From the IMG/VR virus record IMGVR_UViG_646206259_000001: a stretch of 40,052 nucleotides of DNA; one strand, given 5' to 3'. Each line of letters opens with the position of its first letter. Positions within the stretch are counted from its first letter, which is position 1. The stretch comes from a virus. Its lineage: Duplodnaviria; Heunggongvirae; Uroviricota; Caudoviricetes. The translations under genes and the position numbers were made by a program. The notes below the pieces were generated by a model. The model worked only from the letters and a program-made list of their open reading frames with translations, ran no database searches and was not told the origin of the DNA. Of the stretch, positions 18,463-37,718 are shown piece by piece.

Positions 18463-19902
18463 NNNNNNNNNNNNNNNNNNNNNNNNNNNNNNNNNNNNNN
18501 NNNNNNNNNNNNNNNNNNNNNNNNNNNNNNNNNNNNNNNNNNNNNNNNNNNNNNNNNNNNNNNNNNNNNNNNNNNNNNNNNNNNNNNNNNNNNNNNNNNN
18601 NNNNNNNNNNNNNNNNNNNNNNNNNNNNNNNNNNNNNNNNNNNNNNNNNNNNNNNNNNNNNNNNNNNNNNNNNNNNNNNNNNNNNNNNNNNNNNNNNNNN
18701 NNNNNNNNNNNNNNNNNNNNNNNNNNNNNNNNNNNNNNNNNNNNNNNNNNNNNNNNNNNNNNNNNNNNNNNNNNNNNNNNNNNNNNNNNNNNNNNNNNNN
18801 NNNNNNNNNNNNNNNNNNNNNNNNNNNNNNNNNNNNNNNNNNNNNNNNNNNNNNNNNNNNNNNNNNNNNNNNNNNNNNNNNNNNNNNNNNNNNNNNNNNN
18901 NNNNNNNNNNNNNNNNNNNNNNNNNNNNNNNNNNNNNNNNNNNNNNNNNNNNNNNNNNNNNNNNNNNNNNNNNNNNNNNNNNNNNNNNNNNNNNNNNNNN
19001 NNNNNNNNNNNNNNNNNNNNNNNNNNNNNNNNNNNNNNNNNNNNNNNNNNNNNNNNNNNNNNNNNNNNNNNNNNNNNNNNNNNNNNNNNNNNNNNNNNNN
19101 NNNNNNNNNNNNNNNNNNNNNNNNNNNNNNNNNNNNNNNNNNNNNNNNNNNNNNNNNNNNNNNNNNNNNNNNNNNNNNNNNNNNNNNNNNNNNNNNNNNN
19201 NNNNNNNNNNNNNNNNNNNNNNNNNNNNNNNNNNNNNNNNNNNNNNNNNNNNNNNNNNNNNNNNNNNNNNNNNNNNNNNNNNNNNNNNNNNNNNNNNNNN
19301 NNNNNNNNNNNNNNNNNNNNNNNNNNNNNNNNNNNNNNNNNNNNNNNNNNNNNNNNNNNNNNNNNNNNNNNNNNNNNNNNNNNNNNNNNNNNNNNNNNNN
19401 NNNNNNNNNNNNNNNNNNNNNNNNNNNNNNNNNNNNNNNNNNNNNNNNNNNNNNNNNNNNNNNNNNNNNNNNNNNNNNNNNNNNNNNNNNNNNNNNNNNN
19501 NNNNNNNNNNNNNNNNNNNNNNNNNNNNNNNNNNNNNNNNNNNNNNNNNNNNNNNNNNNNNNNNNNNNNNNNNNNNNNNNNNNNNNNNNNNNNNNNNNNN
19601 NNNNNNNNNNNNNNNNNNNNNNNNNNNNNNNNNNNNNNNNNNNNNNNNNNNNNNNNNNNNNNNNNNNNNNNNNNNNNNNNNNNNNNNNNNNNNNNNNNNN
19701 NNNNNNNNNNNNNNNNNNNNNNNNNNNNNNNNNNNNNNNNNNNNNNNNNNNNNNNNNNNNNNNNNNNNNNNNNNNNNNNNNNNNNNNNNNNNNNNNNNNN
19801 NNNNNNNNNNNNNNNNNNNNNNNNNNNNNNNNNNNNNNNNNNNNNNNNNNNNNNNNNNNNNNNNNNNNNNNNNNNNNNNNNNNNNNNNNNNNNNNNNNNN
19901 NN
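18463..19902. other. N-run where Nu1, terminase large subunit A and W N-terminus are expected
   Basis: 1440 consecutive n; shorter than the ~2.5 kb expected. Confidence 1.
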
Positions 19903-21695: not shown

Positions 21696-21989
21696 ATGAA
21701 AAAAATGTTGTTTTCTGCCGCTCTGGCAATGCTTATTACAGGATGTGCTCAACAGACGTTTACTGTTGGAAACAAACCTACAGCAGTAACACCAAAGGAA
21801 ACCATCACCCATCATTTCTTCGTTTCGGGAATTGGGCAGAAGAAAACTGTCGATGCAGCAAAAATTTGTGGTGGTGCAGAAAATGTTGTTAAAACAGAAA
21901 CCCAGCAAACATTCGTAAATGGATTGCTCGGTTTTATTACTTTAGGCATTTATACTCCGCTGGAAGCGCGTGTGTATTGCTCACAATAA
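21696..21989 (+). CDS. bor: Bor lipoprotein (serum resistance / lysogenic conversion)
   Basis: MKKMLFSAALAMLITGCAQQTFTV...GIYTPLEARVYCSQ, 97 aa, matches lambda Bor; opposite strand to the lysis genes as in lambda. Confidence 0.9.
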   Translation: MKKMLFSAALAMLITGCAQQTFTVGNKPTAVTPKETITHHFFVSGIGQKKTVDAAKICGGAENVVKTETQQTFVNGLLGFITLGIYTPLEARVYCSQ

Positions 21990-22020
21990 TTGCATGAGTT
22001 GCCCATCGATATGGGCAGCT

Positions 22021-22597
22021 CTATCTGCACTGCTCATTAATATACTTCTGGGTTCCTTCCAGTTGTTTTTGCATAGTGATCAGCCTCTNNNNNNNNNNNN
22101 NNNNNNNNNNNNNNNNNNNNNNNNNNNNNNNNNNNNNNNNNNNNNNNNNNNNNNNNNNNNNNNNNNNNNNNNNNNNNNNNNNNNNNNNNNNNNNNNNNNN
22201 NNNNNNNNNNNNNNNNNNNNNNNNNNNNNNNNNNNNNNNNNNNNNNNNNNNNNNNNNNNNNNNNNNNNNNNNNNNNNNNNNNNNNNNNNNNNNNNNNNNN
22301 NNNNNNNNNNNNNNNNNNNNNNNNNNNNNNNNNNNNNNNNNNNNNNNNNNNNNNNNNNNNNNNNNNNNNNNNNNNNNNNNNNNNNNNNNNNNNNNNNNNN
22401 NNNNNNNNNNNNNNNNNNNNNNNNNNNNNNNNNNNTATGTCAGTAATTACCGCGTTCGCCAGCGTCAGTTCTCTGGCATTTTTGTCGCGCTGGGCTTTGT
22501 AGGTAATGGCGTTATCACGGTAATGATTAACAGCCCATGACAGGCAGACGATGATGCAGATAACCAGAGCGGAGATAATCGCGGTTACTCTGTTCAT
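22021..22597 (-). CDS. Rz: Spanin Rz (i-spanin), interrupted by N-run 22089-22435; Rz1 presumably inside the N-run
   Basis: N-terminus [38 protein letters not shown]... and C-terminus ...[21 protein letters not shown] match lambda Rz, but the two parts are in different frames. Confidence 0.8.
22089..22435. other. N-run inside Rz
   Basis: 347 consecutive n. Confidence 1.
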
Positions 22598-23091
22598 TGC
22601 TGACCCCACAAACAGATTTCACGCTCAATCTCACGACGAGTCATGAGACCTTTCCATTGCTTACCGCCAGCATATGTCCAGCGACGTAGCTGATCACATG
22701 CGCCTTTGATATCGCCCTGGTTTATTTTGCGAAGAAGCGTCGATGTTCTGAAATTGCCAGCACCCACGTTGTAAACGAATGAGTAAAGAGCGCCGCGCAT
22801 TGTTTCCGGTATATCGACTTTGATGTACGGGTTAATTTGTCTGGCGACCGTGGCAAGGTCTTTATTCAGGAGGGCTTTGCATTCTGCTTTGGTATACGTT
22901 TTACCGAGCATGATGTCTTTTCCTGTATGCCCGTGACATACAGTCCATACACCAACAATATCTTTGTATGGTATGTAGCTGACACCTTCCAGACCATCGT
23001 TACCACTTGGGCCAGTGATTAACACTGATGCTATAGCAATTGCTCCGCCACCAATAGCAGCAGCAACGGCTTTTCGTAATGATGGAGGCAT
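22594..23091 (-). CDS. R: SAR endolysin R (phage 21 type, T4-lysozyme-like)
   Basis: N-terminal Gly/Ala-rich signal-arrest-release segment ([18 protein letters not shown]) and E-8-D-5-T catalytic spacing ([17 protein letters not shown]); matches P21 R from memory. Confidence 0.85.
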
Positions 23092-23306
23092 TATTCACCT
23101 CTCGCAGCCTTGCGCTTATCTTCTTTAATCTTGAAATAAAGGTTTGTCAGGTACGTCAGCAGGCCAAATACCAGGCTACCCAGCACACCTATTGCCGCCC
23201 ACTGTGAGGGCGTGACTTTATCGAGCAACTGTAAAAACCAGTACCCGGCACTACCTGCTGAGGTACCATAGGCGACACCCGTTGTTAACTTATCCATGGA
23301 TTTCAT
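23091..23306 (-). CDS. S: Pinholin S (phage 21 S21 type) with dual-start motif
   Basis: 71 aa, [26 protein letters not shown]...; Met1/Met4 dual start, two TMDs, charged C-terminus. Confidence 0.85.
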
Positions 23307-23444
23307 AACCCCACCTCGCAGACAAAGCGGGTGTAAATTAAGGGGATACTACGTATCGCAATAAAGGCAGAAACGTAACAGATTCGGAGTCAGTGAATAA
23401 CTCAGGTATTGGGTTATCAGCTAATATCGAGACTCAAAAAATGG

Positions 23445-23468
23445 AAAAACCCGCTCGACGGCGGGTTT
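23445..23468 (-). terminator. Rho-independent terminator candidate on the minus strand, ~140 nt upstream of S
   Basis: Stem AAACCCGC/GCGGGTTT with 6-nt loop; on the minus strand followed by TTTTTCCATTTTTTG. Confidence 0.45.
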
Positions 23469-23894
23469 AAGCTGTGTGACGAAGTAACCACTCTTAACAG
23501 CATAACCAATTTTTTACGTACGTAAACTACTAAATGATATTTGTGAGAATGCCACCGAGTGTTCAAAACACCACCACAAATGCATAAGAAAACTTCAACA
23601 AATAACCAGTTAATAATTTCCGATGTTATTTTTAGTTTGTTTAAATTAAGCTAAAGAATTATAGAGCACTTATAAATAAGTGCCATTAATATAAATTAGC
23701 TAATAGATTTATTTTTGTTCAGACAAGAGCCATGAATAGGATTAGATAGAAAAGGTTCAGATAAAAATAGAGATCTACTTCACAAATTAAATGAGAAACT
23801 AAAACTTACATCTTGAAATAATCACATTGATTAGATGAATATTTATCGCGCAGTGACATCATTTTTTAATAATAGTTCAAAAAAAGGGCGTACA

Positions 23895-24977
23895 ATGAAA
23901 AAATTAACAGTGGCAATTTCTGCTGTAGCTGCATCAGTACTGATGGCGATGTCTGCTCAGGCAGCTGAAATTTATAATAAAGACAGTAACAAGCTGGATC
24001 TATACGGGAAAGTTAATGCCAAGCACTACTTCTCCTCTAATGATGCAGATGATGGTGATACTACTTATGCCCGTCTTGGCTTCAAAGGTGAAACCCAAAT
24101 CAACGATCAACTGACTGGTTTCGGTCAGTGGGAATATGAATTCAAAGGCAACCGTGCTGAATCTCAAGGTTCTTCCAAAGACAAAACCCGTCTTGCATTT
24201 GCAGGCCTGAAATTTGGTGATTACGGCTCAATCGATTACGGCCGTAACTACGGTGTAGCATACGACATCGGTGCGTGGACTGACGTTCTGCCAGAATTCG
24301 GTGGTGATACCTGGACCCAAACAGATGTGTTCATGACTGGTCGCACTACTGGTGTTGCAACTTATCGTAACAACGACTTCTTTGGTCTGGTCGATGGCCT
24401 GAACTTTGCTGCTCAGTATCAGGGTAAAAATGACCGCACTGACGTAACTGAAGCCAATGGTGATGGTTTCGGTTTCTCCACTACTTATGAGTATGAAGGA
24501 TTCGGCGTGGGTGCAACCTATGCTAAATCAGATCGCACTGACGGTCAGGTCGCCTATGGTAAGAGCAAATTCAATGCCTCCGGCAAAAATGCGGAAGTAT
24601 GGGCTGCAGGCCTGAAATATGATGCGAACAATATCTATCTGGCTACCACATATTCTGAAACTCAGAATATGACCGTTTTTGGTAATAACCATATTGCAAA
24701 CAAAGCACAAAACTTTGAAGCAGTAGCACAATATCAGTTTGACTTCGGTCTGCGTCCATCTGTTGCTTACCTTCAGTCAAAAGGTAAAGACCTTGGTGTT
24801 CATGGTGACCGAGACTTAGTCAAGTATGTCGATGTCGGTGCTACTTACTACTTTAATAAAAACATGTCCACTTTTGTTGATTACAAAATCAACTTAATTG
24901 ACGATAGTAAGTTTACCAAAACAGCTGGTATTGATACCGACGACATCGTCGCTGTAGGTCTGGTTTATCAGTTCTAA
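23895..24977 (+). CDS. Outer membrane general porin, OmpC/OmpF/NmpC/Lc family (lysogenic conversion)
   Basis: Signal peptide [23 protein letters not shown], porin beta-strand pattern, C-terminal ...VAVGLVYQF; antisense in the Q-S interval as nmpC in DLP12 and lc in PA-2. Confidence 0.85.
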
Positions 24978-24984
24978 TCTGACT

Positions 24985-25024
24985 TACGAAAAAGATATGT
25001 TGCGGGAGGCTTTGCCTCCGCAAC
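24985..25024 (-). terminator. Hairpin with downstream U-run on the minus strand; candidate tR'-like element
   Basis: Stem GTTGCGGGAGGC/GCCTCCGCAAC (one bulge); minus strand continues ATATCTTTTTCG; ~150 nt downstream of Q. Confidence 0.3.
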
Positions 25025-25105
25025 ATATAAGTGGAGCCCTCAAGCCACTTCCTTTAGAAGCACTACCTTGCTTCTTACTATATAAACCTTCTGTTATATA
25101 TTACC

Positions 25106-25140
25106 CTTTATTTTGGGGGCGTTTCCACGCCCCATTTTTA
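25106..25140 (+). terminator. Rho-independent terminator for the porin transcript
   Basis: GGGGCGT-TTCC-ACGCCCC stem-loop followed by ATTTTTAAT on the plus strand. Confidence 0.5.
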
Positions 25141-25165
25141 ATAACTTTTAGTAAACAATTGCATA

Positions 25166-25549
25166 TCAATTAGAATTATTAGCAACGATATCCATATCTA
25201 ACCGGATATCTAATGCCATTAACATCCCTTCAATTATGCCCTCAGCCTTCTGTAACCTTTTCCCGATATAACCATCCGAGCAGCAATGCTTACTTGCCAG
25301 TGACATGAATGTCATACCACATACATAATAATCTACTAATAAATCGTGTAAATCGCTGTTGTTCTTTTTCAGACGGGCCATGCACCCGCAAATGATCATC
25401 GCGTCATCGTCACAACATTGCGGGCGAGATTTTACTTTTGAAGGAATTAATCCCTTAAAACCGGCGGCAATGGACGACCAGGTCACATCTTCATGATTAT
25501 TAGCCGCCCACGCACCCCAACGCTCAAGAACCATCTGAATATCACGCAT
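25166..25549 (-). CDS. Late gene antiterminator Q (QuuD-like, 127 aa)
   Basis: Cys-rich 127-aa protein immediately upstream of the late region and downstream of rusA/ylcG; resembles DLP12 QuuD from memory. Confidence 0.6.
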
Positions 25550-25634
25550 CAACTTACTCCACAAAAATCAGACCAGAACGCCAATTACAAGCAAAAATCA
25601 ACAAAACAGTATTAGTTGATTGTTATCTCTGACT

Positions 25635-25775
25635 TCATACTCCTGTTCCTGTCAGGGTTTTGGCGTAATTCTTCAGTATTCGGTAATCGGTCAAAACAGA
25701 ACCGAGGAAACGATATAAGCGCAGACGCCCCCAGCGGTGGCGAAGAAGTTCTGCCATATTAAACTCAAACATCAT
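25635..25775 (-). CDS. ylcG: Small protein YlcG-like (46 aa)
   Basis: 46-codon ORF translated by hand ([23 protein letters not shown]...); start overlaps the rusA stop; absent from the ORF track (<60 aa); position matches ylcG in DLP12-type nin regions. Confidence 0.5.
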
Positions 25776-26134
25776 TCATTCCCCATTTCGGTGATGGTCA
25801 GTTCCAGCCTCCCACCTTTGGTAACAGGCATCTTCACAACGCGGTAATCAACGACCTGAGCATCATCCAGCCAGAAACCTGCTTTAGTGAGTGCGTCAAA
25901 AGCGGCTTTTTGCAGATTATCCAGGTCACGGCGACGGCGATCCGGCATGTGGCACTCAATGCGGATTTTCACAGGCATAGCCAGGCCGATATCCAGCATT
26001 GCGTTTTTAATGATTCGGGCGACGTTATCGCGGTATGCCTGCCCCTCTGCGCTGACGTGCGTGCGCCCGCGATTATGGCGGTAATAGCGATTATTGCTCG
26101 GAGGCCAGGGTAATGTGATGCTGTAGGTATTCAC
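25772..26134 (-). CDS. rusA: Holliday junction resolvase RusA
   Basis: [38 protein letters not shown]... 120 aa matches RusA. Confidence 0.9.
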
Positions 26135-26340
26135 GCCTTAATAACCCCCTCTTTCAGCCACATAACCTGTGTTCTCGCCATACCTTCCAGCGCGCATTCT
26201 TTTGCATATGCAGCATCGACTTGCTTGGCATGCCCTTTACCGGCAATCTTCTGTATGCGCTAAACCTAGATAGAATCCACTCTGTGCACATTGAAGCCCG
26301 CTCTATGCTTTCTTTCAGGTATTGAAGGGATTGAGATGGG

Positions 26341-26688
26341 CTAAGCATTATTGGCCTCCTGCATCAGGAGAAAGACAATCATGGCGGCGCGGAGAGGTCT
26401 GGTATCAAATATTGGGCTTACGCCTTTTGCATCCACACACCATTCAGTTAACTGGTCTAAGATAGAAATCCTGTATTTCTCAATAATCGGCCATGAAGCG
26501 CTCGGATCATTGCAGTAGTCAGGCAAATGATTTAATGGCTCAAAAGTTGTATCAGCATTTCCGTAATACCATTTGTTGGTGTTATTCCCTGATGTTTCCG
26601 GTTTACTTGCCCAAAGGCCTTTAAAAATTATGTCTCCTACCATTCTGTTAATTTCAAAATCACTTAACTGTGAATAATCCATTGTCAT
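26341..26688 (-). CDS. Hypothetical nin-region protein (115 aa)
   Basis: ATG at 26688 overlaps the ninE stop (ATGA); family not recognised. Confidence 0.5.
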
Positions 26689-26861
26689 TTCCTCGCACGA
26701 TATCTTAGCCACCGGATATCCCACAGGTGGGCTGTGTAATTGAAGGTTTTTACGTCAGATTCTTTTGGGATTAGCTTGCGTTTATTTCTGGAGCGTTTCG
26801 TTGGAAGGTATTTGCAGTTTTCGCAGATTATGTCGGTGATGCTTCGTCGCTGTCGTCTCAT
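26685..26861 (-). CDS. ninE: NinE protein
   Basis: [52 protein letters not shown]... 58 aa, lambda NinE-like; ATGA coupling on both sides. Confidence 0.75.
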
Positions 26862-27385
26862 GCAGCCCTCCTGACGCCCTGCCCGATCGCCATCAATGCC
26901 GCTTTGGATACGGTAGTAAACATCCGTCGAGGACTGATGAACGGTCGCCAAATCAGCAGCATGGAGCCTTTGCTGTTTCCCTTCTTCTCCAGCCCTGTCG
27001 ATGGTTCGATAAAATTAATCCGTCCATCAGTGATAATACGAACTTCGTCAACACTCTCCAGAGCCTTGCTGAACCATCCGACAGACATATCCTCTGGCAC
27101 AAGCATCACTACCGTCTGTCGCTGTTGTATACACTGCTCAGCGGCTTTTTCCACCCACGGCCTGATATTGCTGTACGGTGGGTTATTCCAGATTGCACCG
27201 TGGCTTACCCACTCAGAATTGAGCGCGTCGTCGTCCTCAGTTAGCCAGTGAGCGCACAGAGCATTTTTGTCGCTCGCTGCCGAATCCAGCCAGAATCCAA
27301 ACTCAATATCCAGTGCATCAAAAAGCCAAAGCGGCGTTTGCCAGCAGTCCTTGTCGTGTGCTGGCGTATTTGATTTGATAGTCAT
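26858..27385 (-). CDS. Phage-type DNA N6-adenine methyltransferase (Dam-like), 175 aa
   Basis: NPPYS (D/NPPY) catalytic motif and ...[14 protein letters not shown]... N-terminus; start overlaps the ninB stop. Confidence 0.7.
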
Positions 27386-27822
27386 GCAGCCCGATCTCCC
27401 CATCGCGCTTTCCATTCGAGAGCCAGTCGCGCTTCGTCTGACCACTTAACGCCACGCTCTGTACCGAATGCCTGTATAAGCTCTAATAGCTCCGCAAATT
27501 CGCTTACACGCATCCTGCTGGTTGACTGGCCTATTACCACAAAGCCATTCCCGGCAAGGTTAGGAACAACATCCTGCTGCTTTAATGCTGCGGTAAACAC
27601 ACACTTCCAGCTTTCTGCATCCAGCCAGCGACCATGCCATTCAACCTGACGAGAGACGTCACCTAAGCAGGCCCATAGCTTCCTGTTTTGGTCTAAGCTG
27701 CGGTTGCGTTCCTGAATGGTTACTACGATTGGTTTGGTTGGGTCTGGAAGGATTTGCTGTACTGCGTGAATAGCGTTTTGCTGATGTGCCGGAGATCGAA
27801 TTTCAAAGGTTAGTTTTTTCAT
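27382..27822 (-). CDS. ninB: Recombination protein NinB (Orf)
   Basis: MKKLTFEIRSPAHQQNAIHAVQQILPDPTKPIVVTIQERNRSLDQN... matches lambda NinB. Confidence 0.9.
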   Translation of the reverse strand: MKKLTFEIRSPAHQQNAIHAVQQILPDPTKPIVVTIQERNRSLDQNRKLWACLGDVSRQVEWHGRWLDAESWKCVFTAALKQQDVVPNLAGNGFVVIGQSTSRMRVSEFAELLELIQAFGTERGVKWSDEARLALEWKARWGDRAA

Positions 27823-27840
27823 GACTTCCCTCTCCCCCAA

Positions 27841-27870
27841 ATAAAAAGGCCTGCGATTACCTGCAGGCCT
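27841..27870 (-). terminator. Rho-independent terminator, tR2 equivalent (between ren and ninB)
   Basis: Stem AGGCCTGC/GCAGGCCT with 8-nt loop; minus strand continues TTTTTAT; same position as lambda tR2. Confidence 0.65.
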
Positions 27871-27895
27871 GTTATTAGCTCAGTGATGTAGATGG

Positions 27896-28186
27896 TCATC
27901 TTTTAACTCCATATACCGCCAATATCCGTTTCATCGTGGCACTCTGGCGACACTCCTTAAAAATCAGGTTCGTGCTCATCTTTCCTTCCCGTTCTTCCTT
28001 GGTAGCAAACCGGTAATACACCGTTCGCCAGACCTTACCTTCGATAACCAGAAGACCTGCCCGTGCCATTTTAGCCGCGGCCTGATTTATGCTGGTTACT
28101 GTTGCGCCTGTTAGCGCGGCAACGTCCGGCGCACAGAAGCTATTATGCGTCCCCAGGTAATGAATAATTGCCTCTTTGCCCGTCAT
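27896..28186 (-). CDS. ren: Ren protein
   Basis: MTGKEAIIHYLGTHNSFCAPDVAALTGATVTSINQAAAKMARAG... 96 aa matches lambda Ren. Confidence 0.9.
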   Translation of the reverse strand: MTGKEAIIHYLGTHNSFCAPDVAALTGATVTSINQAAAKMARAGLLVIEGKVWRTVYYRFATKEEREGKMSTNLIFKECRQSATMKRILAVYGVKR

Positions 28187-28884
28187 ACACTTGCTCCTTT
28201 CAGTCCTAACTTAGCTTTAATTTCTGCGATCTTCGCCAGCGCCTGAACACGATTTAGAGGTCTGCCGCCCATGACAGGAAGTTGTTTTACTGGTTCAGGT
28301 ATCGTCTCACCACGGTTAATTCGCGCTGTCATACAGGTCAGTTCATCGGCAGCCTTGCGTCGTAATTCCGCGTCAGTCAGCGCATTGGCCCGCATGTTCT
28401 GGTACAGGTTGGTAACCAGCCAGTAGTGCGCGTTCGATTTCCACGGATAAGACTCTGCATCCGGATACAGGCCTCGCTTCCGGCAATACTCGTAAACCAT
28501 ATCAACCAGCTCGCTGACGTTTGGCAGTCCGGCGATAACGGATGCTTCTTCCCGGCACCATGCAACAAACTGCCCGGGTGATGGCAGAAATGGTCGATTC
28601 TGCCGACGGGCTACGCGCATTCCTGCGTTAACCTGTTCCATTGTGGTGATCCCGTTTTCCCGGAAAGCCAGAACCCACTGGCGGCGGATTTCGTTCAGTT
28701 CGTTCTGGTCACGGTTAGCCAGACTCGCCGGGAAAGTTGCCAGTAACTGGCTGAACACACCGTTGATGATCTGCGCTACCTGCTGTACCTGCGGCTTTTC
28801 GTCGTACTGTTCCGGCATGTTGTTGGCGATCCGACGCATCTGCTCACGGTCAAAATTAACCATCTGTGCGGCGATGTTTTTCAT
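28183..28884 (-). CDS. P: Replication protein P (helicase loader)
   Basis: 233 aa; MKNIAAQMVNFDREQMRRIANNMPEQYDEKPQVQQVAQIINGVFSQLL... matches lambda P. Confidence 0.9.
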   Translation of the reverse strand: MKNIAAQMVNFDREQMRRIANNMPEQYDEKPQVQQVAQIINGVFSQLLATFPASLANRDQNELNEIRRQWVLAFRENGITTMEQVNAGMRVARRQNRPFLPSPGQFVAWCREEASVIAGLPNVSELVDMVYEYCRKRGLYPDAESYPWKSNAHYWLVTNLYQNMRANALTDAELRRKAADELTCMTARINRGETIPEPVKQLPVMGGRPLNRVQALAKIAEIKAKLGLKGASV

Positions 28885-29780
28885 AAATCCACCCCGTAAA
28901 TCCAGTCAGTGTTTGTCAGGTCGAGTTTTGGTTTGCAGGCTGTCACACCTGCCTGTTGCTTGTTACGGTTGATTTCGAGCTGGGTCCACTTGTCGCGGAG
29001 TTTGGCCGGGCTCAGCACGTTACCGGACCAGAAGTTGTCCTGGCATGCCCAGCGGAACAGTACACACATGTCGCGATGGTTACGTCCGTCACGTTCACGC
29101 ATCAGGCGGATATCGTTAGCCCACCCTGCAAAATTCGGTTTTCTGGCTGATGGCGCGATGGTCTTCACCATGTCAAACATCCATTCTGCGGCGGTCAGGT
29201 CTTCTGCTGTCCCCCACTTGCTGCCGCTCTGAATTGCAGCATCCGGTTTCACCACAGAAAGGTCGTTTTCTGGCTGGTCAGAGGATTCGCCAGAATTCTC
29301 TGACGAATAATCTTTTCTTTTTTCTTTTGTAATAGTGTCTTTTGTGTCCCCCTGTTTTGAGGGATAGCAATCCCCCAATTTGAGGGATGTTTTATCCCTC
29401 GTTTTAGGGGATTTTCCCTCGTTTTGAGGGATACACCATTCTGAGATGTTTTTATTTGGTCCAAACATGCCGCCTTGCTGCTTGATAATATTCATTCTGA
29501 CGAGTTCTAACTTGGCTTCATTGCACCGTTTGACGGGTAACTTTGTAATCTCGCTAAGTTGAGAATCGGTGATTCTGTCCATTGGTTTATTCCATCCATA
29601 GGTTTTACGCAGAATGGCAAGCAGCACTTTAAACTGTCGCTTGGTCAGATCTGCGCCTGAATAAGCCTCAAGCAGCATATTTGATAGTCTGGCGTAACCA
29701 TCATCGAGATCTGCCACATTACGCTCCTGTTTGGCAAAGTTACCTCTGCAGAAGTTGAGTATTTTTGCTGTATTTGTCAT
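28881..29780 (-). CDS. O: Replication initiator protein O
   Basis: 299 aa; MTNTAKILNFCRGNFAKQERNVADLDDGYARLSNMLLEAYSGADLTKRQFKVLLAILRKTYGWNKP... matches lambda O; contains ori iterons. Confidence 0.9.
   Translation of the reverse strand: MTNTAKILNFCRGNFAKQERNVADLDDGYARLSNMLLEAYSGADLTKRQFKVLLAILRKTYGWNKPMDRITDSQLSEITKLPVKRCNEAKLELVRMNIIKQQGGMFGPNKNISEWCIPQNEGKSPKTRDKTSLKLGDCYPSKQGDTKDTITKEKRKDYSSENSGESSDQPENDLSVVKPDAAIQSGSKWGTAEDLTAAEWMFDMVKTIAPSARKPNFAGWANDIRLMRERDGRNHRDMCVLFRWACQDNFWSGNVLSPAKLRDKWTQLEINRNKQQAGVTACKPKLDLTNTDWIYGVDL
29290..29432 (-). repeat. ori-lambda: four ~18-bp iterons (29347-29432) plus adjacent AT-rich region, inside O
   Basis: Four copies of TCCC(T/C)C-N5-6-GAGGGAT (e.g. 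TCCCTCGTTTTGAGGGAT) followed by TCTTTTCTTTTTTCTTTTGTAATAG. Confidence 0.85.
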
Positions 29781-29812
29781 AATGACTCCTGTGGATTGAT
29801 CCAGTAATGACC

Positions 29813-30109
29813 TCAGAATTCCATCTGGATTTGTTCAGAACGCTCGGTTGCCGCCGGGCGTTTTTTATTGGTGAGTCCATCAAGCGCATACTTAAAAGCC
29901 CTGCTAATCGGACTGATGTCTGATGCCATTCCGAAAGCACACAAGACCGAAGCAATAAATCTCCAGTCCGTTCTGCTTATCTTCGATTCATGACAGCCAA
30001 TCATCTTTGCCAGACCGCGCTGGGTAATAGCTGACAGATTGATAAGTAAATCTGTTTCTGCGCGATCAACGTCACGCTGTGATAGTTTGCTGTAACTTGT
30101 TCTTTCCAT
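29813..30109 (-). CDS. cII: Transcriptional activator cII (chimeric: lambda-like C-terminus, divergent N-terminal domain)
   Basis: C-terminal ...LTNKKRPAATERSEQIQMEF identical to lambda cII; N-terminal ~75 aa differ. Confidence 0.75.
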   Translation of the reverse strand: MERTSYSKLSQRDVDRAETDLLINLSAITQRGLAKMIGCHESKISRTDWRFIASVLCAFGMASDISPISRAFKYALDGLTNKKRPAATERSEQIQMEF

Positions 30110-30193
30110 TTCTTAAGATTTCCAATAGTGAATAGTTAGTTGAAAGGTATGCATGGAAACGCATATGGCCTTAGTTGGTCAGATATCTTGGAA

Positions 30194-30240
30194 CTCGCTT
30201 TTCAGCGACGTAGGACGAATGTCCGTTGTTACAAAGAGCG
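30194..30240 (-). promoter_or_regulatory. nutR candidate: boxA (CGCTCTTTGTAACAA) and boxB hairpin (UCGCU-GAAA-AGCGA) downstream of cro
   Basis: Read on the minus strand; boxA matches the CGCTCTT(T)A consensus; boxB core GCUGAAAAGC is shared with the nutL candidate. Confidence 0.6.
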
Positions 30241-30250
30241 GATCCGCTTA

Positions 30251-30466
30251 TTAAGCGGCTTTGTGTTCCGGCGGGAACACGTCATCAAGACTGACTTTTG
30301 CGCCTAACTTGTTTAGGCACGCAACAAGAGCACGGCATGTTTTAAGGTCTGGGAAGCGACGACCAGATTCCCAATGTCCGATAGCTCCCTGTGTGCATCC
30401 AACTGCCTTAGCAAGTGTTGTTTGAGAGATATTCAGTGACTCTCGATATTTTCGTAGGTTGCTCAT
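30251..30466 (-). CDS. cro: Cro-like repressor (HTH_XRE, 71 aa)
   Basis: MSNLRKYRESLNISQTTLAKAVGCTQGAIGHWESGRRFPDL... HTH; GGAGGG RBS; divergent from cI; upstream part of the 128-aa track ORF discarded. Confidence 0.8.
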   Translation of the reverse strand: MSNLRKYRESLNISQTTLAKAVGCTQGAIGHWESGRRFPDLKTCRALVACLNKLGAKVSLDDVFPPEHKAA

Positions 30467-30577
30467 ATGCCCTCCATAGTAAACACGAATAAAAAAATAC
30501 AATATGTACTTTGCGAATACAAGTAAAAATACACATTGTGCATGGATGGTTCCAGTACAGAGCGTAATAATAAGGAC
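30467..30577. promoter_or_regulatory. Immunity operator/promoter region (OR, divergent PR and PRM); individual operators not resolved
   Basis: 111-bp AT-rich divergent intergenic region between the cro and cI starts; imperfect dyads; motif ATATGTACTTT also present, inverted, near the PL candidate. Confidence 0.55.
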
Positions 30578-31237
30578 ATGAAAATGAAATGGTATGAACT
30601 GGCTAGATCCAGAATGAAAGAGCTCGGCATAACTCAAGAGAAGTTAGCCGAAGAGCTAGGTATGACGCAGGGTGGGATTGGACACTGGTTGCGCGGATCT
30701 CGTCATCCATCTCTTAGTGATATTGGTGTGGTGTTTAAATACCTTGGTATTGATAACATATCATTCAACCACGACGGGACATTTTCACCTGTTGGCGAAT
30801 ACTCATCGGCCCCAGTTAAAAAACAATATGAGTACCCTGTTTTTTCTCATGTTCAGGCTGGGATGTTCTCTCCAGAACTCAGAACCTTTACCAAAGGCGA
30901 TGCGGAGAGATTGGTAAGCACAACCAAAAAAGCCAGTGACTCTGCATTCTGGCTTGAGGTTGAAGGTAACTCAATGACCGCACCAACAGGTTCCAAACCC
31001 AGCTTTCCTGACGGGATGTTAATTCTGGTTGACCCTGAGCAAGCTGTTGAGCCCGGCGATTTCTGCATAGCCAGACTTGGTGGTGATGAATTTACCTTCA
31101 AGAAACTGATCAGGGATAGCGGTCAGGTGTTTCTACAGCCACTAAACCCACAATACCCAATGATCCCATGCAATGAGAGTTGTTCCGTTGTGGGGAAAGT
31201 TATCGCCAGCCAATGGCCTGAAGAGACGTTTGGGTGA
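30578..31237 (+). CDS. cI: CI repressor (HTH N-domain plus LexA-like S24 autocleavage domain)
   Basis: HTH ...[23 protein letters not shown]...; Ala-Gly cleavage site (VQAGMF), catalytic Ser (GNSMTAP) and Lys (FTFKKLIRD); AAGGA RBS. Confidence 0.85.
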
Positions 31238-31276
31238 TGAAACCACTTTTATCTACAATTTACAGGGCGGTAAACA

Positions 31277-31834
31277 TTGGCAAAAATAGATGATTATCAG
31301 CCAAGCCAAGTAGAAGTTGATAAAGTACTTTATTGTAAAAAAATAGTTAACTTTTCTGGCGTTAAATGGAAACAGAAACCAAGTCGCTCTGATATGTGGC
31401 TACAAGCCCATATCATCCCCTTGGATGAGGATTGTATACCTATACAAGGGCTAAAGTTTGAACTGAAATGGAAACCAGATCAGGATTCAGAACCTGATGA
31501 CCCGATTTCTTACCCTAAAATAAATATTATTGCTTTCTATCATAACAAGAGGGTTTTCGCGGTAGATACCTATCACTTTGACAAACACACGAATAGTTAC
31601 AAGGTCGATCATCCGAAGTACCAAGATATCATTTACGGTGCTCACTACCATGTATACTATGAAGAAGCTGGATACTATAGTGATAGAATAGCGTTTCCAA
31701 TCGAAGATGACATAAACCCAGATGACCTGGTAGGGTATTGGAATTACTTCTGTAAACATCTGAACATAACTTACTCTGGGAGAATACCTTTACCGCTTGA
31801 AGATGAGTCGGGGCAAATGGGGTTTGGAATATGA
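31277..31834 (+). CDS. Hypothetical protein A (185 aa) of the cI-linked module; Tyr/Asp-rich, no TM segment; TTG start predicted, first ATG at 31394
   Basis: ORF 39 nt downstream of cI, AT-rich; stop overlaps the start of the next gene (ATGA at 31831-31834). Confidence 0.55.
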   Translation: MAKIDDYQPSQVEVDKVLYCKKIVNFSGVKWKQKPSRSDMWLQAHIIPLDEDCIPIQGLKFELKWKPDQDSEPDDPISYPKINIIAFYHNKRVFAVDTYHFDKHTNSYKVDHPKYQDIIYGAHYHVYYEEAGYYSDRIAFPIEDDINPDDLVGYWNYFCKHLNITYSGRIPLPLEDESGQMGFGI

Positions 31835-32583
31835 TGTGCTCAACAGTGATCTCACAACTAGGTTTCGAATGCCATCCAATAGGCAAGACCTTGAGAATTA
31901 TCAGTCCATTCACTTACTGTGATGATGGAGAGCATGTCGGTGCCTTTATCCGTGAAGTCAATGGTAGGTATTTAGTTAGTGACAGATGCGATGCCTTAAT
32001 GAATATGGAGGCAAGAGGGATCTCGCTTACCAAAAAACGACTTGATGAGATACGACAATTACTGCTTAAAGAAGGCGCAGAACTCAATGCTCGAGGAGAA
32101 ATCATTGCTTGGGCAACAGAAAAGGATGTCGGTGCGATTACATCGAACATAATTAGAGCTGGTATACTCGCATCAACTTTGTCGTTAGACTGGTATCAGC
32201 CAGTTCAAGCTGAAAAGTTTGAAAGTATGGTTATTGATTATCTATATCACACAGAGCTTAGAGACGCACTTTCTCTTCGTGAAAACGTATATGGCTTGAG
32301 TGGACATCAAATTACCGTCCCTGTAACAATAAAAACCGACATACCTAAATACGTTTTTACATCAAGCGTGAAACACGGAGGAAGCTGGAATAGTGCTTAC
32401 TCATTGCTTGGGAAACTAATTGATCTTAAAGCTTCAAGTGAGGAGTATAACAACAGATTTGTTGTTATAGACAGCGAAGCAATTGGTGATCAAATGCAAC
32501 AACTCTCCTTACTCTTCCATGAATCAAGCCAAGTTCTACCATTCTCCAAAAGAGAGACTTGGGTTAAGAGACTTGCAGCATAA
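31831..32583 (+). CDS. Hypothetical protein B (250 aa) of the cI-linked module; soluble, no recognised motif
   Basis: ATG at 31831 translationally coupled to protein A; followed 5 nt later by a terminator. Confidence 0.6.
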   Translation: MMCSTVISQLGFECHPIGKTLRIISPFTYCDDGEHVGAFIREVNGRYLVSDRCDALMNMEARGISLTKKRLDEIRQLLLKEGAELNARGEIIAWATEKDVGAITSNIIRAGILASTLSLDWYQPVQAEKFESMVIDYLYHTELRDALSLRENVYGLSGHQITVPVTIKTDIPKYVFTSSVKHGGSWNSAYSLLGKLIDLKASSEEYNNRFVVIDSEAIGDQMQQLSLLFHESSQVLPFSKRETWVKRLAA

Positions 32584-32588
32584 TACAA

Positions 32589-32610
32589 CCCGGCCTCAGC
32601 GCCGGGTTTT
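32589..32610 (+). terminator. Rho-independent terminator ending the cI operon (t-imm equivalent)
   Basis: CCCGGC-CTCAGC-GCCGGG stem-loop followed by TTTTCTTT. Confidence 0.7.
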
Positions 32611-32802
32611 CTTTGCCTCACGTTCGCCCACCTAAAAACACATAACCAATTATATTTATTGAAAAATAAATAGATGCAACCCACTAAACCACGCAATTCT
32701 GATCTCTCCTTACATCGCCGAGGCAATACATCCACGCTAAAAAACAACACTATTAAATACAAAGCGTTATAAAAAACCACGCCAACTTACAACAAATTGT
32801 AT

Positions 32803-32831
32803 TGATCTTGTAAAGTACATATCGTACTATT
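32803..32831 (+). promoter_or_regulatory. PL promoter candidate (-35 TTGATC, 17-bp spacer, -10 TACTAT) with overlapping operator-like dyads
   Basis: Sigma70-like hexamers ~45 nt upstream of nutL boxA; dyad AGTACATATCGTACT at 32814-32828. Confidence 0.4.
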
Positions 32832-32876
32832 TAACCGTCAGCAGGACGCTGGAAGCCAAATGGAACAGACTGGCAG

Positions 32877-32922
32877 GCTCTTTAAACAACGTCGACTCTC
32901 GACTACGTGGCTGAAAAGCCAG
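32877..32922 (+). promoter_or_regulatory. nutL candidate: boxA (GCTCTTTAAACAA) and boxB hairpin (UGGCU-GAAA-AGCCA)
   Basis: boxA matches the GCTCTTTAA consensus; boxB 5-bp stem with GAAA loop shares the core GCUGAAAAGC with the nutR candidate. Confidence 0.6.
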
Positions 32923-33019
32923 ATCACCCAACCACATAAGCTGTGGGATGCAATGCCGAAGCAACCGTCTCAGGAGGAGCTTCGAGATTGCATCGCCAAA
33001 GTTTATTCGGGAGGAATCC

Positions 33020-33292
33020 ATGTCCAGAAAAACAGAATTTAAAGGCACCGCAGCTTCTCGCCGTAGAGCTCGTCGCGCAAATCTGCAAAGTCAGGAGGCG
33101 ATCAGCTCCGACAAGCTACACAGGCCAACCCCTTCACGAGTGGTCTTGCAATGCAAGCTCAAACCAGCAATGAGAGCAGAAGTGATAACTCTGACAACGT
33201 TGACCAGAAAATATGAAGGTTCAACTTGTCTTCCGAACGTAGCTCTTTACGCGGCAGGCTACCGGAAATCAAAACAACTGACGGCGAGATGA
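33020..33292 (+). CDS. N: Antiterminator N (P22 gp24-like), 90 aa
   Basis: N-terminal arginine-rich motif (TAASRRRARRANLQ) and C-terminal ...LPNVALYAAGYRKSKQLTAR resembling P22 N; strong GGGAGGA RBS. Confidence 0.75.
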   Translation: MSRKTEFKGTAASRRRARRANLQSQEAISSDKLHRPTPSRVVLQCKLKPAMRAEVITLTTLTRKYEGSTCLPNVALYAAGYRKSKQLTAR

Positions 33293-33308
33293 TAAATTCA
33301 TTTGCTAA

Positions 33309-33890
33309 TTACTTGTTTTTGCCATGCTTATCCTGAGCGATAAGTTCATCCATAAGGCTGTCTGCCTTCCCGGCAAACCTAATGTAGCACTCATGTCTAT
33401 AGCTTTCAGGGATAACGAAACGGTCGGTATCAGGATATCCAACAGCAGGAGGCCTTCGAACGAGGAGTCCTTTTTTGAGCAATGAAATTGATTCATGAGC
33501 GCCCTTTTCCGTTTGTAGCTGGTTATTAGCGGCTACAGCGAATGCCAAATACGCTCTTTCTCCAAGAGTTAACGAATCAAACAAATCTTGCACATATTTT
33601 TCTTCTTTAGATTTGCGCTTCTGAGCAGCGAATACCTCAATTCTTTCAGTCACAGCGTGATAAGCGGAATTAACAACGCCGTTAAGCACATAGCTAACGC
33701 AAAACAACAGGATGTAATACATCCAGTAATGAGGAAGGATTTCTGGATTATGCAGGTTTATCCATTCTTTTACGCTTACCGGCATAACAATAATCAATAT
33801 GATCAGGATGATTAGCATATGAATCAACTGTTTAAGTGTCATTCCTTGCAGGAAAAAATGCATTAGTTCCTGCCACCATGAGTTGTTCAT
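33309..33890 (-). CDS. sieB: Superinfection exclusion protein SieB-like (193 aa, membrane)
   Basis: Two hydrophobic segments in the N-terminal half; size and position between N and ral match lambda sieB; sequence match from memory is weak. Confidence 0.5.
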   Translation of the reverse strand: MNNSWWQELMHFFLQGMTLKQLIHMLIILIILIIVMPVSVKEWINLHNPEILPHYWMYYILLFCVSYVLNGVVNSAYHAVTERIEVFAAQKRKSKEEKYVQDLFDSLTLGERAYLAFAVAANNQLQTEKGAHESISLLKKGLLVRRPPAVGYPDTDRFVIPESYRHECYIRFAGKADSLMDELIAQDKHGKNK

Positions 33891-34103
33891 CGGCGTTTCT
33901 CTTTTGCTCTCTGTAGGGGTGAATAGAGTTTATCCGATTTCTCGTTGTAGGGGTACACGAGAACCACCGAGCCTGATGTGGTTAAAAGACAGGCACAATC
34001 TTTACTACCGCAATCCACTATTTAAGGTGATATATGGAAGAAGAATTTGAAGAGTTCGAAGAGCATCCTCAAGATGTGATGGAACAATACCAGGACTATC
34101 CGT

Positions 34104-34304
34104 ATGACTACGACTATTGATACAAATCAATGGTGTGGACAATTCAAACGATGCAATGGATGCAAGCTGCAATCGGAATGCATGGTTAAGCCTGAAGAAA
34201 TGTTTCCTGTAATGGAAGATGGGAAATATGTCGATAAATGGGCAATACGAACGACGGCAATGATTGCCAGAGAACTTGGTAAACAGAACAACAAAGCTGC
34301 CTGA
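34104..34304 (+). CDS. ral: Restriction alleviation protein Ral
   Basis: MTTTIDTNQWCGQFKRCNGCKLQSECMVKPEEMFPVMEDGKYVDKWAIRTTAMIARELGKQNNKAA, 66 aa, matches lambda Ral. Confidence 0.85.
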   Translation: MTTTIDTNQWCGQFKRCNGCKLQSECMVKPEEMFPVMEDGKYVDKWAIRTTAMIARELGKQNNKAA

Positions 34305-34440
34305 TAGTGGCCTTTATTTTTGGCATAAATAACAGAATAAACACTGCACTGTGTATTCATTCCAACGAGTGAATACACGGAGCAATGTCGCTCGTAACTA
34401 AACAGGAGCCGACTTGTTCTGATTATTGGAAATCTTCTTT

Positions 34441-34466
34441 GCCCTCCAGTGTGAGGGCGATTTTTT
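34441..34466 (+). terminator. Rho-independent terminator in the PL operon (tL-type)
   Basis: GCCCTC-CAGTGT-GAGGGC stem-loop followed by GATTTTTTA. Confidence 0.6.
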
Positions 34467-34486
34467 ATCTATGAGGATATGAATAG

Positions 34487-34855
34487 ATGTCAAACATCAA
34501 AAAATACATCATTGATTACGACTGGAAAGCATCAATAGAAATTGAAATTGACCATGACGTAATGACAGAGGAAAAACTTCACCAGATTAATAATTTCTGG
34601 TCAGACTCTGAATACCGACTCAATAAACACGGCTCTGTATTAAATGCTGTATTAATCATGCTGGCGCAACATGCTCTGCTTATAGCAATTTCAAGCGACT
34701 TAAATGCATATGGTGTTGTGTGTGAGTTCGACTGGAATGATGGAAATGGTCAGGAAGGATGGCCTCCAATGGATGGTAGTGAAGGAATAAGAATTACCGA
34801 TATCGATACATCAGGAATATTTGATTCAGATGATATGACTATCAAGGCCGCCTGA
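34487..34855 (+). CDS. ea10: Ea10-like early protein (122 aa)
   Basis: 122-aa ORF between ral and cIII, the position and size of lambda ea10; flanking genes are near-identical to lambda. Confidence 0.5.
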   Translation: MSNIKKYIIDYDWKASIEIEIDHDVMTEEKLHQINNFWSDSEYRLNKHGSVLNAVLIMLAQHALLIAISSDLNAYGVVCEFDWNDGNGQEGWPPMDGSEGIRITDIDTSGIFDSDDMTIKAA

Positions 34856-34927
34856 GCGCGGCGTTACCGCATACCAATTACGCTTCACTCGAGGCGTTTT
34901 TCGTTATGTATAAATAAGGAGCACACC

Positions 34928-35092
34928 ATGCAATATGCCATTGCAGGGTGGCCTGTTGCTGGCTGCCCTTCCGAATCTTTACTTGAACGAATCACCCGTA
35001 AATTACGTGACGGATGGAAACGCCTTATCGACATACTTAATCAGCCAGGAGTCCCAAAAAATGGATCAAACAATTATGGCTATCCAGACTAA
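34928..35092 (+). CDS. cIII: CIII protein (FtsH inhibitor), 54 aa
   Basis: Hand translation [54 protein letters not shown] matches lambda CIII; absent from the ORF track (<60 aa). Confidence 0.85.
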   Translation: MQYAIAGWPVAGCPSESLLERITRKLRDGWKRLIDILNQPGVPKNGSNNYGYPD

Positions 35093-35204
35093 ATTCACTA
35101 TCGCCACTTTTATTGGCGATGAAAAGATGTTTCGTGAGGCCGTCGACGCTTATAAAAAATGGATATTAATACTGAAACTGAGATCAAGCAAAAGCATTCA
35201 CTAA
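35061..35204 (+). CDS. kil: Kil protein (host killing / FtsZ inhibition), 47 aa
   Basis: [47 protein letters not shown] matches lambda Kil; it is the C-terminal part of the 89-aa track ORF and overlaps the cIII 3' end. Confidence 0.8.
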
Positions 35205-35279
35205 CCCCCTTTCCTGTTTTCCTAATCAGCCTGGCATTTCGCGGGCGATATTTTCACAGCCATTTTCAGGAGTTCAGCC

Positions 35280-35576
35280 ATGAACGCTTATTACATTCAG
35301 GATCGTCTTGAGGCTCAGAGCTGGGCGCGTCACTACCAGCAGATCGCCCGTGAAGAGAAAGAGGCAGAACTGGCAGACGACATGGAAAAAGGCCTGCCCC
35401 AGCACCTGTTTGAATCGCTATGTATCGATCATTTACAACGCCACGGGGCCAGCAAAAAAGCCATTACCCGTGCGTTTGATGACGATGTTGAGTTTCAGGA
35501 GCGCATGGCAGAACACATCCGGTACATAGTTGAAACCATTGCTCACCATCAGGCTGATATTGATTCAGAGGTATAA
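35280..35576 (+). CDS. gam: Gam (RecBCD inhibitor), GamS form, 98 aa
   Basis: [60 protein letters not shown]... matches lambda Gam. Confidence 0.9.
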
Positions 35577-35581
35577 AACGG

Positions 35582-36367
35582 ATGAGTACAGCACTCGCAA
35601 CGCTGGCAGGGAAGCTGGCTGAACGTGTCGGCATGGATTCTGTCGACCCACAGGAACTGATCACCACTCTTCGCCAGACGGCATTTAAAGGTGATGCCAG
35701 CGATGCGCAGTTCATCGCATTGTTGATCGTCGCCAACCAGTACGGCCTTAATCCGTGGACGAAAGAAATTTACGCCTTCCCTGATAAGCAGAACGGCATT
35801 GTTCCGGTGGTGGGCGTTGATGGCTGGTCCCGCATCATCAATGAAAACCAGCAGTTTGATGGTATGGACTTTGAGCAGGACAATGAATCATGTACATGCC
35901 GGATTTACCGCAAAGACCGCAATCATCCGATCTGCGTTACCGAGTGGATGGATGAATGCCGCCGCGAACCATTCAAAACCCGCGAAGGCAGAGAAATCAC
36001 GGGGCCGTGGCAGTCGCATCCCAAACGGATGTTACGGCATAAAGCCATGATTCAGTGTGCCCGTCTGGCCTTCGGATTTGCTGGTATCTATGACAAGGAT
36101 GAAGCCGAGCGCATTGTCGAAAATACCGCATACACTGCAGAACGTCAGCCGGAACGCGACATCACTCCGGTTAACGATGAAACCATGCAGGAGATTAACA
36201 CTCTGCTGATTGCCCTGGACAAAACATGGGATGACGACTTATTGCCGCTCTGTTCCCAGATATTTCGCCGCGACATTCGCGCATCGTCAGAACTGACACA
36301 GGCCGAAGCAGTGAAAGCTCTTGGATTCCTGAAACAGAAAGCCACTGAGCAGAAGGTGGCAGCATGA
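35582..36367 (+). CDS. bet: Recombinase Bet (Red beta)
   Basis: 261 aa; [68 protein letters not shown]... matches lambda Bet. Confidence 0.9.
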
Positions 36368-37044
36368 CACCGGACATTATCCTGCAGCGTACCGGGATCG
36401 ACGTGAGAGCTGTCGAACAGGGGGATGATGCATGGCACAAATTACGGCTCGGCGTCATCACCGCTTCAGAAGTTCACAACGTGATAGCAAAGCCCCGCTC
36501 AGGAAAGAAGTGGCCTGACATGAAAATGTCCTACTTCCACACCCTGCTGGCTGAGGTTTGCACCGGTGTGGCTCCGGAAGTTAATGCTAAGGCGCTGGCG
36601 TGGGGAAAACAGTACGAGAACGACGCCAGAACCCTGTTTGAATTCACTTCCGGCGTGAATGTTACTGAATCCCCGATCATCTATCGCGACGAAAGTATGC
36701 GCACCGCCTGCTCTCCCGATGGTTTATGCAGTGACGGCAATGGCCTTGAGCTGAAATGCCCGTTTACCTCCCGGGATTTCATGAAGTTCCGGCTCGGTGG
36801 TTTCGAGGCCATAAAGTCGGCTTACATGGCCCAGGTGCAGTACAGCATGTGGGTGACACGAAAAGATGCCTGGTACTTTGCCAACTATGACCCACGAATG
36901 AAGCGTGAAGGCCTGCATTATGTCGTGGTTGAGCGGGATGAAAAGTACATGGCGAGTTTTGACGAGATGGTGCCGGAGTTCATCGAAAAAATGGACGAAG
37001 CACTGGCTGAAATTGGTTTTGTATTTGGAGAGCAATGGCGATGA
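36364..37044 (+). CDS. exo: Exonuclease Exo (Red alpha)
   Basis: 226 aa; [65 protein letters not shown]... matches lambda Exo. Confidence 0.9.
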
Positions 37045-37223
37045 CCCATCCTCACGATAATATCCGGGTAGGCGCGATCACTTTCGTCTACTCCGTTACA
37101 AAGCGAGGCTGGGTATTTCACGGTCTTTCTGTTATCCGAAATCCGCTGAAAGCCCAGCGGCTGGCTGAGGAGATAAATAATAAACGGGGGGCGGTATGCA
37201 CAAAGCATCTCCTGTTGAGTTAA
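37035..37223 (+). CDS. Lambda orf60a-like protein
   Basis: 62-aa ORF overlapping the exo 3' end; position matches lambda orf60a. Confidence 0.5.
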
Positions 37224-37387
37224 GAACGAGTATTGATTTGGCACATAGCCTTGCTCAAATTGGAGTCAGGTTTGTGCCAATACCAGCAGAAACAGACGAA
37301 GAATTTCATACGTTAGCCACATCCCTTTCACAAAAGCTGGAAATGATGGTGGCGAAAGCAGAAGCAGATGAGAGAGACCAGGTATGA
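37196..37387 (+). CDS. Lambda orf63-like protein
   Basis: 63-aa ORF; size and position match lambda orf63. Confidence 0.5.
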   Translation: MHKASPVELRTSIDLAHSLAQIGVRFVPIPAETDEEFHTLATSLSQKLEMMVAKAEADERDQV

Positions 37388-37397
37388 CAACCACTGA

Positions 37398-37580: not shown

Positions 37581-37697
37581 AGAAGCACCGCGAAACGGTA
37601 ACGCTGAAGGGATTCACACCGACTCATTTAAGCCTGGCAATCGGCATGTTAAACGGCGTCTTTAAGGAACGATGAACATGAAAAGCAAAATTATCAG

Positions 37698-37718
37698 GGA
37701 GCTACAGGCTCCTTTTTT
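37698..37718 (+). terminator. Rho-independent terminator candidate
   Basis: GGAGC-TACAG-GCTCC stem-loop followed by TTTTTTATT. Confidence 0.55.

Follow-up and report, generated by a model that had tools for sequence, protein, structure and literature searches.

An orphan phage N6-adenine methyltransferase gene in the nin region of a lambda-like Escherichia coli prophage

Why phages of Dam-positive hosts so often retain a GATC-type methylase of their own is a puzzle. It is raised here by a small gene in the window, i.e. the whole 40,052-nucleotide stretch of IMG/VR virus record IMGVR_UViG_646206259_000001, which is a lambda-like, non-Stx prophage. Judging from its sequence, the gene is an intact copy of the well-known small DNA adenine methyltransferase of many lambda-like E. 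coli prophages. Its product is very likely an orphan, AdoMet-dependent DNA N6-adenine methyltransferase of the T1 Dam/VT2 Dam family, and the adenine of GATC is the most probable target. The gene is already known: RefSeq annotates it correctly as a "phage N-6-adenine-methyltransferase" (WP_000153286.1), and a near-identical orthologue was characterised in 2001. In this respect the identification is correct but ordinary. The substrate of the enzyme, the time of its expression and its benefit to the phage are the points considered below.

Translation of the gene (Table 1) gives 175 residues followed by a stop codon, with NPPY at residues 68-71 (codons 27184..27173) in the context IWNNPPYSN. The gene lies on the minus strand, which the original prediction did not specify. 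Its ATG (27385..27383) shares TG with the TGA of ninB (27384..27382), and the ATG of ninE (26861..26859) shares TG with the TGA of the methyltransferase gene (26860..26858). Both junctions are thus ATGA overlaps, and the sequence at each is GCTGCATGA. The product encoded 3' of ninE, NinX, matches PF10765 (E 1.1e-16 in the Pfam profile search). The original prediction had described a 175-aa methyltransferase with an NPPY-type motif, joined to ninB and ninE by ATGA overlaps on both sides; the translation bears out the first statement, and the bases, together with the PF05772 and PF05322 matches of the neighbours, the second. A longer open reading frame of 195 aa, started by GTG and reaching 27445, was rejected as the gene, since the homologues and RefSeq begin at the ATG at 27385 and the extension would run 60 nt into ninB.

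Table 1. Positions of the methyltransferase gene, its motifs and junctions, and other features of the prophage (window coordinates)
Feature	Position	Strand	Basis
Phage N6-adenine DNA methyltransferase CDS, 175 aa	26858..27385	-	Translation, PF05869, TIGR01712, phrog_111, RefSeq WP_000153286.1
NPPY (N68-P69-P70-Y71), catalytic motif IV codons	27173..27184	-	Reverse complement AAC CCA CCG TAC
L33-D34-S35-A36-A37-S38, putative AdoMet-binding motif I variant (LDxAAS)	27272..27289	-	Homologue conservation, position before NPPY
ninB/orf recombination mediator gene	27382..27822	-	PF05772, E 1.3e-54; RefSeq coordinates
ninE	26685..26861	-	PF05322, E 1.8e-41; RefSeq coordinates
Upstream 11-nt junction GGGCTGCATGA, ninB end/methyltransferase start	27382..27392	-	Bases read
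Downstream 11-nt junction GGGCTGCATGA, methyltransferase end/ninE start	26858..26868	-	Bases read
tR2-like intrinsic terminator hairpin between ren and ninB	27847..27870	-	AGGCCTGCAGGTAATCGCAGGCCT then TTTTATTTGG
OmpC-like porin, between quuD and lysis genes	about 23895-24977	+	RefSeq, UPEC129
iss (bor-like), serum-survival lipoprotein	about 21811-22104	+	RefSeq, UPEC129; partly under N run 22089-22435
Ral antirestriction gene, pL operon	about 34104-34304	+	RefSeq, UPEC129
sieB	33309-33890	-	RefSeq, UPEC129
Masked N runs	4659-5884, 7024-7959, 9844-10418, 15256-16812, 18463-19902, 22089-22435		

According to profile searches, the protein belongs to the family over its full length. It matches PF05869 "DNA N-6-adenine-methyltransferase (Dam)" with E 3.7e-65 and 219.1 bits at profile positions 1-167 of 169 (curated cut-off 28.1 bits), and the NCBIfam equivalog TIGR01712 "phage N-6-adenine-methyltransferase" with E 1.2e-79 and 265.6 bits at positions 1-165 of 165 (curated cut-off 97.05 bits). 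The match to PHROG 111 (phrog_111, "DNA methyltransferase") has an E-value of 8.3e-88. No family besides PF05869 was matched in the Pfam search, neither PF02086 nor MT-A70. The full-length PF05869 and TIGR01712 matches, which put a chance origin of the reading frame out of the question, confirm the N6-adenine methyltransferase type that had been predicted.

Conservation was assessed in an alignment of the window protein with 42 full-length homologues of 59-86% identity from Enterobacterales, including Escherichia, Pectobacterium, Serratia, Edwardsiella, Providencia, Yersinia, Photorhabdus and Xenorhabdus. Among these 43 sequences 46 columns are invariant, and they contain the whole catalytic motif (N68, P69, P70 and Y71) as well as T17, P18, D34, P97, D99, S101, W104, G121, F125, K139 and G140. 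In the LDxAAS stretch (residues 33-38), L33, D34 and A36 are invariant, and T1 Dam reads LDAAAS there. From its position before NPPY, this stretch is plausibly a variant of AdoMet motif I.

The AlphaFold2 model, built on the homologue alignment, is of moderate confidence (mean pLDDT 75, pTM 0.77). NPPY directly follows strand 64-66 in this model, as motif IV does, and residues 75-160 form a helix-strand core. The segment in which motifs II and III would be expected, residues 37-63, shows pLDDT values of 55-62 and no secondary structure. The model resembles gamma-type N6-adenine methyltransferases, e.g. M.TaqI, more than cellular Dam, and the structure ranked closest to it is that of an RNA cap methyltransferase. 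A sequence search against PDB chains returned noise only (E 0.31 or worse); the family therefore has no solved structure. On the model, the protein would be a minimal, single-domain member of the class I N6-adenine methyltransferases; its motifs follow a gamma-like order, and a separate recognition domain is absent. The hairpin of residues 121-141 (GRxxF...GNxKGS) and the N-terminal WQTP segment are likely candidates for the elements that contact DNA.

Comparison with known methyltransferases shows in which sense the gene is "Dam-like", as it had been called. Cellular Dam and T4 Dam (alpha class, PF02086) share with the window enzyme the reported GATC target, the N6-adenine chemistry, the (D/N)PPY motif and the class I fold. 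The features of canonical Dam (E. coli Dam, T4 Dam, DpnM), namely the PF02086 profile and an inserted target-recognition domain that separates the AdoMet-binding half from the catalytic half, are nevertheless absent from the window protein, and among phage enzymes only those of T2 and T4 are homologues of cellular Dam (PMC7139368). The term thus holds for the reported target and fails for ancestry, given the lack of a PF02086 match, the gamma-type structural neighbours and the account of PMC7139368. M.TaqI, other gamma-class N6-adenine methyltransferases and PCIF1/CAPAM have 8-15% identity with the window protein; they are 380-600 aa long and carry large C-terminal or accessory recognition domains, which the window protein lacks.

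Another characterised member of the family is T1 Dam (ST20, 237 aa), which also matches PF05869 (E 1.7e-70). Its identity with the window protein is 33%, and WxTP, LDxAAS, NPPYS, PxDxSxWF, GRxxF and GNxKGS are common to both. T1 Dam is extended by 45 residues at its N-terminus and has ~14 residues inserted ahead of the GR...F hairpin. T1 is, moreover, a virulent phage, and its gene has another neighbourhood, following a helicase gene and having neither ninB nor ninE alongside. The Dam proteins of phages HP1 and HP2 are grouped with T1 Dam by annotation. The target of T1 Dam, too, is presumably GATC; if so, the reported specificity spans the breadth of the family. T1 Dam has been purified (Scherzer et al. 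1987, listed among the references of PMC7139368).

The nearest characterised relative comes from the Stx2 phage VT2-Sakai (NC_000902). Its orf32 product (NP_050531.1) has the same length as the window protein and is identical to it at 174 of 175 residues; the sole difference is residue 51 (D here, A in VT2), which falls in a variable, low-confidence loop. At the DNA level the two genes differ at 9 nt, of which 8 are synonymous and 1 is non-synonymous. In VT2-Sakai the gene occupies the identical slot between ninB and ninE, with the same ATGA junctions. Since orf32 is the only methyltransferase annotated in the VT2-Sakai genome, it is inferred to be M.EcoVT2Dam. The difference between the two settings is that the host prophage here is non-Stx and lambda-like and adjoins icd in extraintestinal E. 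coli. The dam product of Phi24B is 100% identical to NP_050531.1, and the copies of HK97 and many other Stx phages reach 98-100%. The VT-2 dam methyltransferase was reportedly cloned, and its GATC specificity established, by Radlinska and Bujnicki in 2001. A statement in PMC6602927, citing Radlinska and Bujnicki 2001, reads "M.EcoVT2Dam is known to target 5'-GATC-3'", and a statement in PMC7139368, with the same citation, names VT-2 among the phages whose methyltransferases showed Dam-like activity. The GATC specificity of the window enzyme, most probable as it is, thus rests on secondary citations for the 99.4%-identical VT2 enzyme and for T1 Dam. Over-expression of a methyltransferase can cause off-target methylation (PMC10810198), and the GATC assignment would be weaker if the VT2 assay relied on a cloned, over-expressed gene.

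The strongest alternative, improbable as it appears, is that the gene encodes an active adenine methyltransferase whose native substrate or specificity is not duplex GATC, i.e. that it recognises another or a relaxed motif, single-stranded DNA or RNA, possibly together with a partner. There is a precedent in gp5 of Stx phages (M.EcoPA8orf6770P/M.EcoGV), which is also an orphan of lambdoid Stx prophages annotated as a GATC adenine methyltransferase. Bound to PNB-2, a partner protein that it requires, this enzyme acts preferentially on 16S rRNA, and its apparent GATC activity was ascribed to over-expression (PMC10810198). The lack of a separate target-recognition domain in the 175-aa window protein also speaks for such a substrate. 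The gp5 enzyme, however, is of another family: it belongs to MT-A70, has the motif DPPW and is encoded by the fifth gene from the left genome end, whereas the window protein has NPPY, matches PF05869 and gives no MT-A70 match. For the same reasons the prophage rRNA methyltransferase described in NAR 2023 (PMC10810198), which is gp5, was rejected as being the same gene. Furthermore, both VT2 Dam and T1 Dam, members of the same family, are cited for Dam-like activity, T1 Dam being listed as purified, and the occurrence of the gene in T1 away from ninB and ninE argues against an obligatory partner from the nin region.

A related proposal is that the native enzyme is not redundant with host Dam and acts on a distinct substrate or with a distinct partner, for example on intermediates of replication or recombination handled by the co-translated NinB/Orf, or on RNA. 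Its prospects are slim; if true, the enzyme could tune prophage induction or recombination, the reassignment of an MT-A70 "GATC methylase" as a 16S rRNA methyltransferase being the precedent. Methylation of duplex GATC remains the preferred reading.

As for expression, the order of genes on the minus strand is cro-like, cII, O, P, ren, the terminator, ninB, the methyltransferase gene, ninE, ninX, a DUF1364 remnant, rusA, ylcG and quuD. The methyltransferase gene is thus placed as in a lambdoid nin region: it falls between the replication genes and Q, shares their strand, is tightly packed by ATGA overlaps and lies 3' of a tR2-like site. The strong terminator-like hairpin (27870..27847) has 8 pairs, 6 of them G-C, and is followed by the T tract TTTTATTT; by its position it is taken as the equivalent of lambda tR2. 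Since the gene lies downstream of this terminator, N-antitermination-dependent delayed-early expression would be expected. By analogy with lambda biology, the methyltransferase should be expressed only under N antitermination, i.e. on induction or infection, when transcripts from pR are carried past the tR2-like terminator by N. The ATGA overlaps probably couple its translation to those of ninB and ninE, and the enzyme would then appear during phage DNA replication. In Phi24B the level of the dam transcript was significantly changed on induction, and the dam product was recovered by an expression screen of lysogen cultures (PMC3342100). Autoregulation through a GATC in the ribosome-binding region of the gene (27393) was considered as well, and was dropped because VT2-Sakai has no GATC at that position.

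The gene order and the upstream tR2-like terminator agree with the delayed-early nin-region location of the original prediction. Its description of the enzyme as an orphan likewise stands: the flanking genes are ninB, ninE, ninX, ren and rusA, no nuclease gene adjoins the methyltransferase gene, and the enzyme is classed as an orphan because of this.

With regard to mechanism, membership of the family suggests that the class I enzyme would bind AdoMet, with LDxAAS as the motif I variant, and that the target adenine would be flipped into the pocket of N68-P69-P70-Y71 and receive the methyl group at N6. The most parsimonious role would be to top up Dam-type methylation on fast-replicating phage DNA that host Dam leaves under-methylated. 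Virion DNA of lambda and P22 indeed carries less than full methylation by host Dam, perhaps because modification cannot keep pace with replication (PMC8022706). Progeny genomes would then be shielded in the next host from methylation-sensitive restriction that cuts GATC and from MutH nicking, and the enzyme may also affect the stability of lysogeny. That it completes the GATC methylation of progeny and thereby protects them against GATC restriction and MutH is a tentative suggestion, with the odds somewhat against it, and is the least certain part of the interpretation. No knockout phenotype of a nin-region methyltransferase was found in the literature searched.

The GATC content of the window bears on the same question. 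According to a maximal-order Markov model, 155 GATC sites are expected in its 33,971 non-N bases, and 96 are observed (ratio 0.62, z about -4.8), which makes GATC the second most depleted of the 256 tetramers after CTAG. Depletion of GATC has been reported for prophages in general (PMC6602927, PMC4659465). In the window it is seen although the prophage encodes a probable GATC methylase. With host Dam already present, a GATC enzyme of the prophage's own looks redundant, and the depletion leaves fewer sites to protect.

Redundancy of this kind leads to the second alternative, that the gene is intact and functionally irrelevant cargo, silent in the lysogen, making no lytic contribution because host Dam suffices, and hitch-hiking in the nin region. 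It draws on the facts that lambdoid phages can dispense with nin-region genes (PMC8022706), that lambda itself has ninC and ninD in the slot and no methyltransferase, and that a prophage methyltransferase of EC958, a predicted Dam homologue that is possibly another gene, showed no transcription in the conditions examined (PMC4659465). The substitutions relative to VT2, however, are strongly synonymous (8 versus 1), full-length homologues are conserved in many genera of Enterobacterales, and copies with at least 95% identity occur in 1566 of 5426 complete E. coli genomes (~29%), in up to 5 places per genome. Recovery of the Phi24B orthologue product in the expression screen of lysogen cultures (PMC3342100) also disagrees with silence. 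Taken with these observations, the idea of inert cargo seems quite improbable. Finally, that the enzyme serves as the modification partner in a restriction-modification system is hardly credible: nothing besides its being a DNA methyltransferase favours it, whereas the flanking genes are ninB, ninE, ninX, ren and rusA, no restriction endonuclease is annotated by RefSeq in the early/regulatory half of the identical UPEC129 prophage, and the same arrangement recurs in VT2-Sakai; a Type II system was rejected on this gene neighbourhood, which has no adjacent cognate endonuclease gene.

An orphan GATC methylase thus remains the favoured interpretation, and the junctions of its gene show how it may have been exchanged. 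The 11-mer GGGCTGCATGA encodes ..AA, a stop and the next ATG, and forms a perfect direct repeat around the methyltransferase gene, which makes the gene a repeat-flanked cassette. The downstream junction of VT2-Sakai is GGGCGGCATGA, with 1 mismatch to GGGCTGCATGA, and lambda ninB, followed there by ninC and ninD, ends with the same 11-mer GGGCTGCATGA. Recombination between the two copies of GGGCTGCATGA would cut out the cassette precisely and rejoin ninB and ninE in the same ATGA register, and the repeat looks like a boundary of module exchange. Mosaic exchange at nin-gene boundaries is known (PMC8022706), and the methyltransferase cassette fits it.

Databases also contain fusions of the methyltransferase with NinE, NinB, CII-like, RusA-like or other domains (P0002, P0016, P0113, P0005, P0011). 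These fusion proteins come mostly from automatic assemblies and are probably artefacts of frameshift or assembly at ATGA overlaps or at recombinant junctions. P0002, P0016 and P0113, which have few members, were weighed as a sign of physical partnership and set aside on these grounds.

The gene recurs with 100% identical DNA in phages ev207, ev017 and PhiR57_1, and likewise in the E. coli strains Nissle 1917, ATCC 11775, NU14 and many others. The copy studied here belongs to a prophage carried by uropathogenic strains, and the identical gene is present in the probiotic Nissle 1917. Strains such as UPEC129 have the entire prophage; the Nissle 1917 copy has no intact integrase. Beyond the gene, window positions 23000-40052 are 100% identical to prophages that adjoin icd in human extraintestinal E. 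coli, e.g. UPEC129 and SCU-123.

The late/structural half of the prophage contains six masked N runs with a total of 6081 bases, none of them near the nin region. They yield spurious long open reading frames in all frames, and they are also the cause of the low GC in parts of the window, which was therefore rejected as a biological feature. RefSeq annotates two pseudogenes in the identical UPEC129 prophage: between ninX and rusA a DUF1364 gene is truncated (window about 26131-26220), and in the pL operon a zapA-like gene carries a frameshift (window about 37464-37675). Together they indicate some decay in an otherwise complete-looking prophage. RefSeq further places an OmpC-like porin gene, iss, Ral and sieB in the UPEC129 prophage (Table 1). 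Ral and the methyltransferase give each of the two early operons a restriction-related function.
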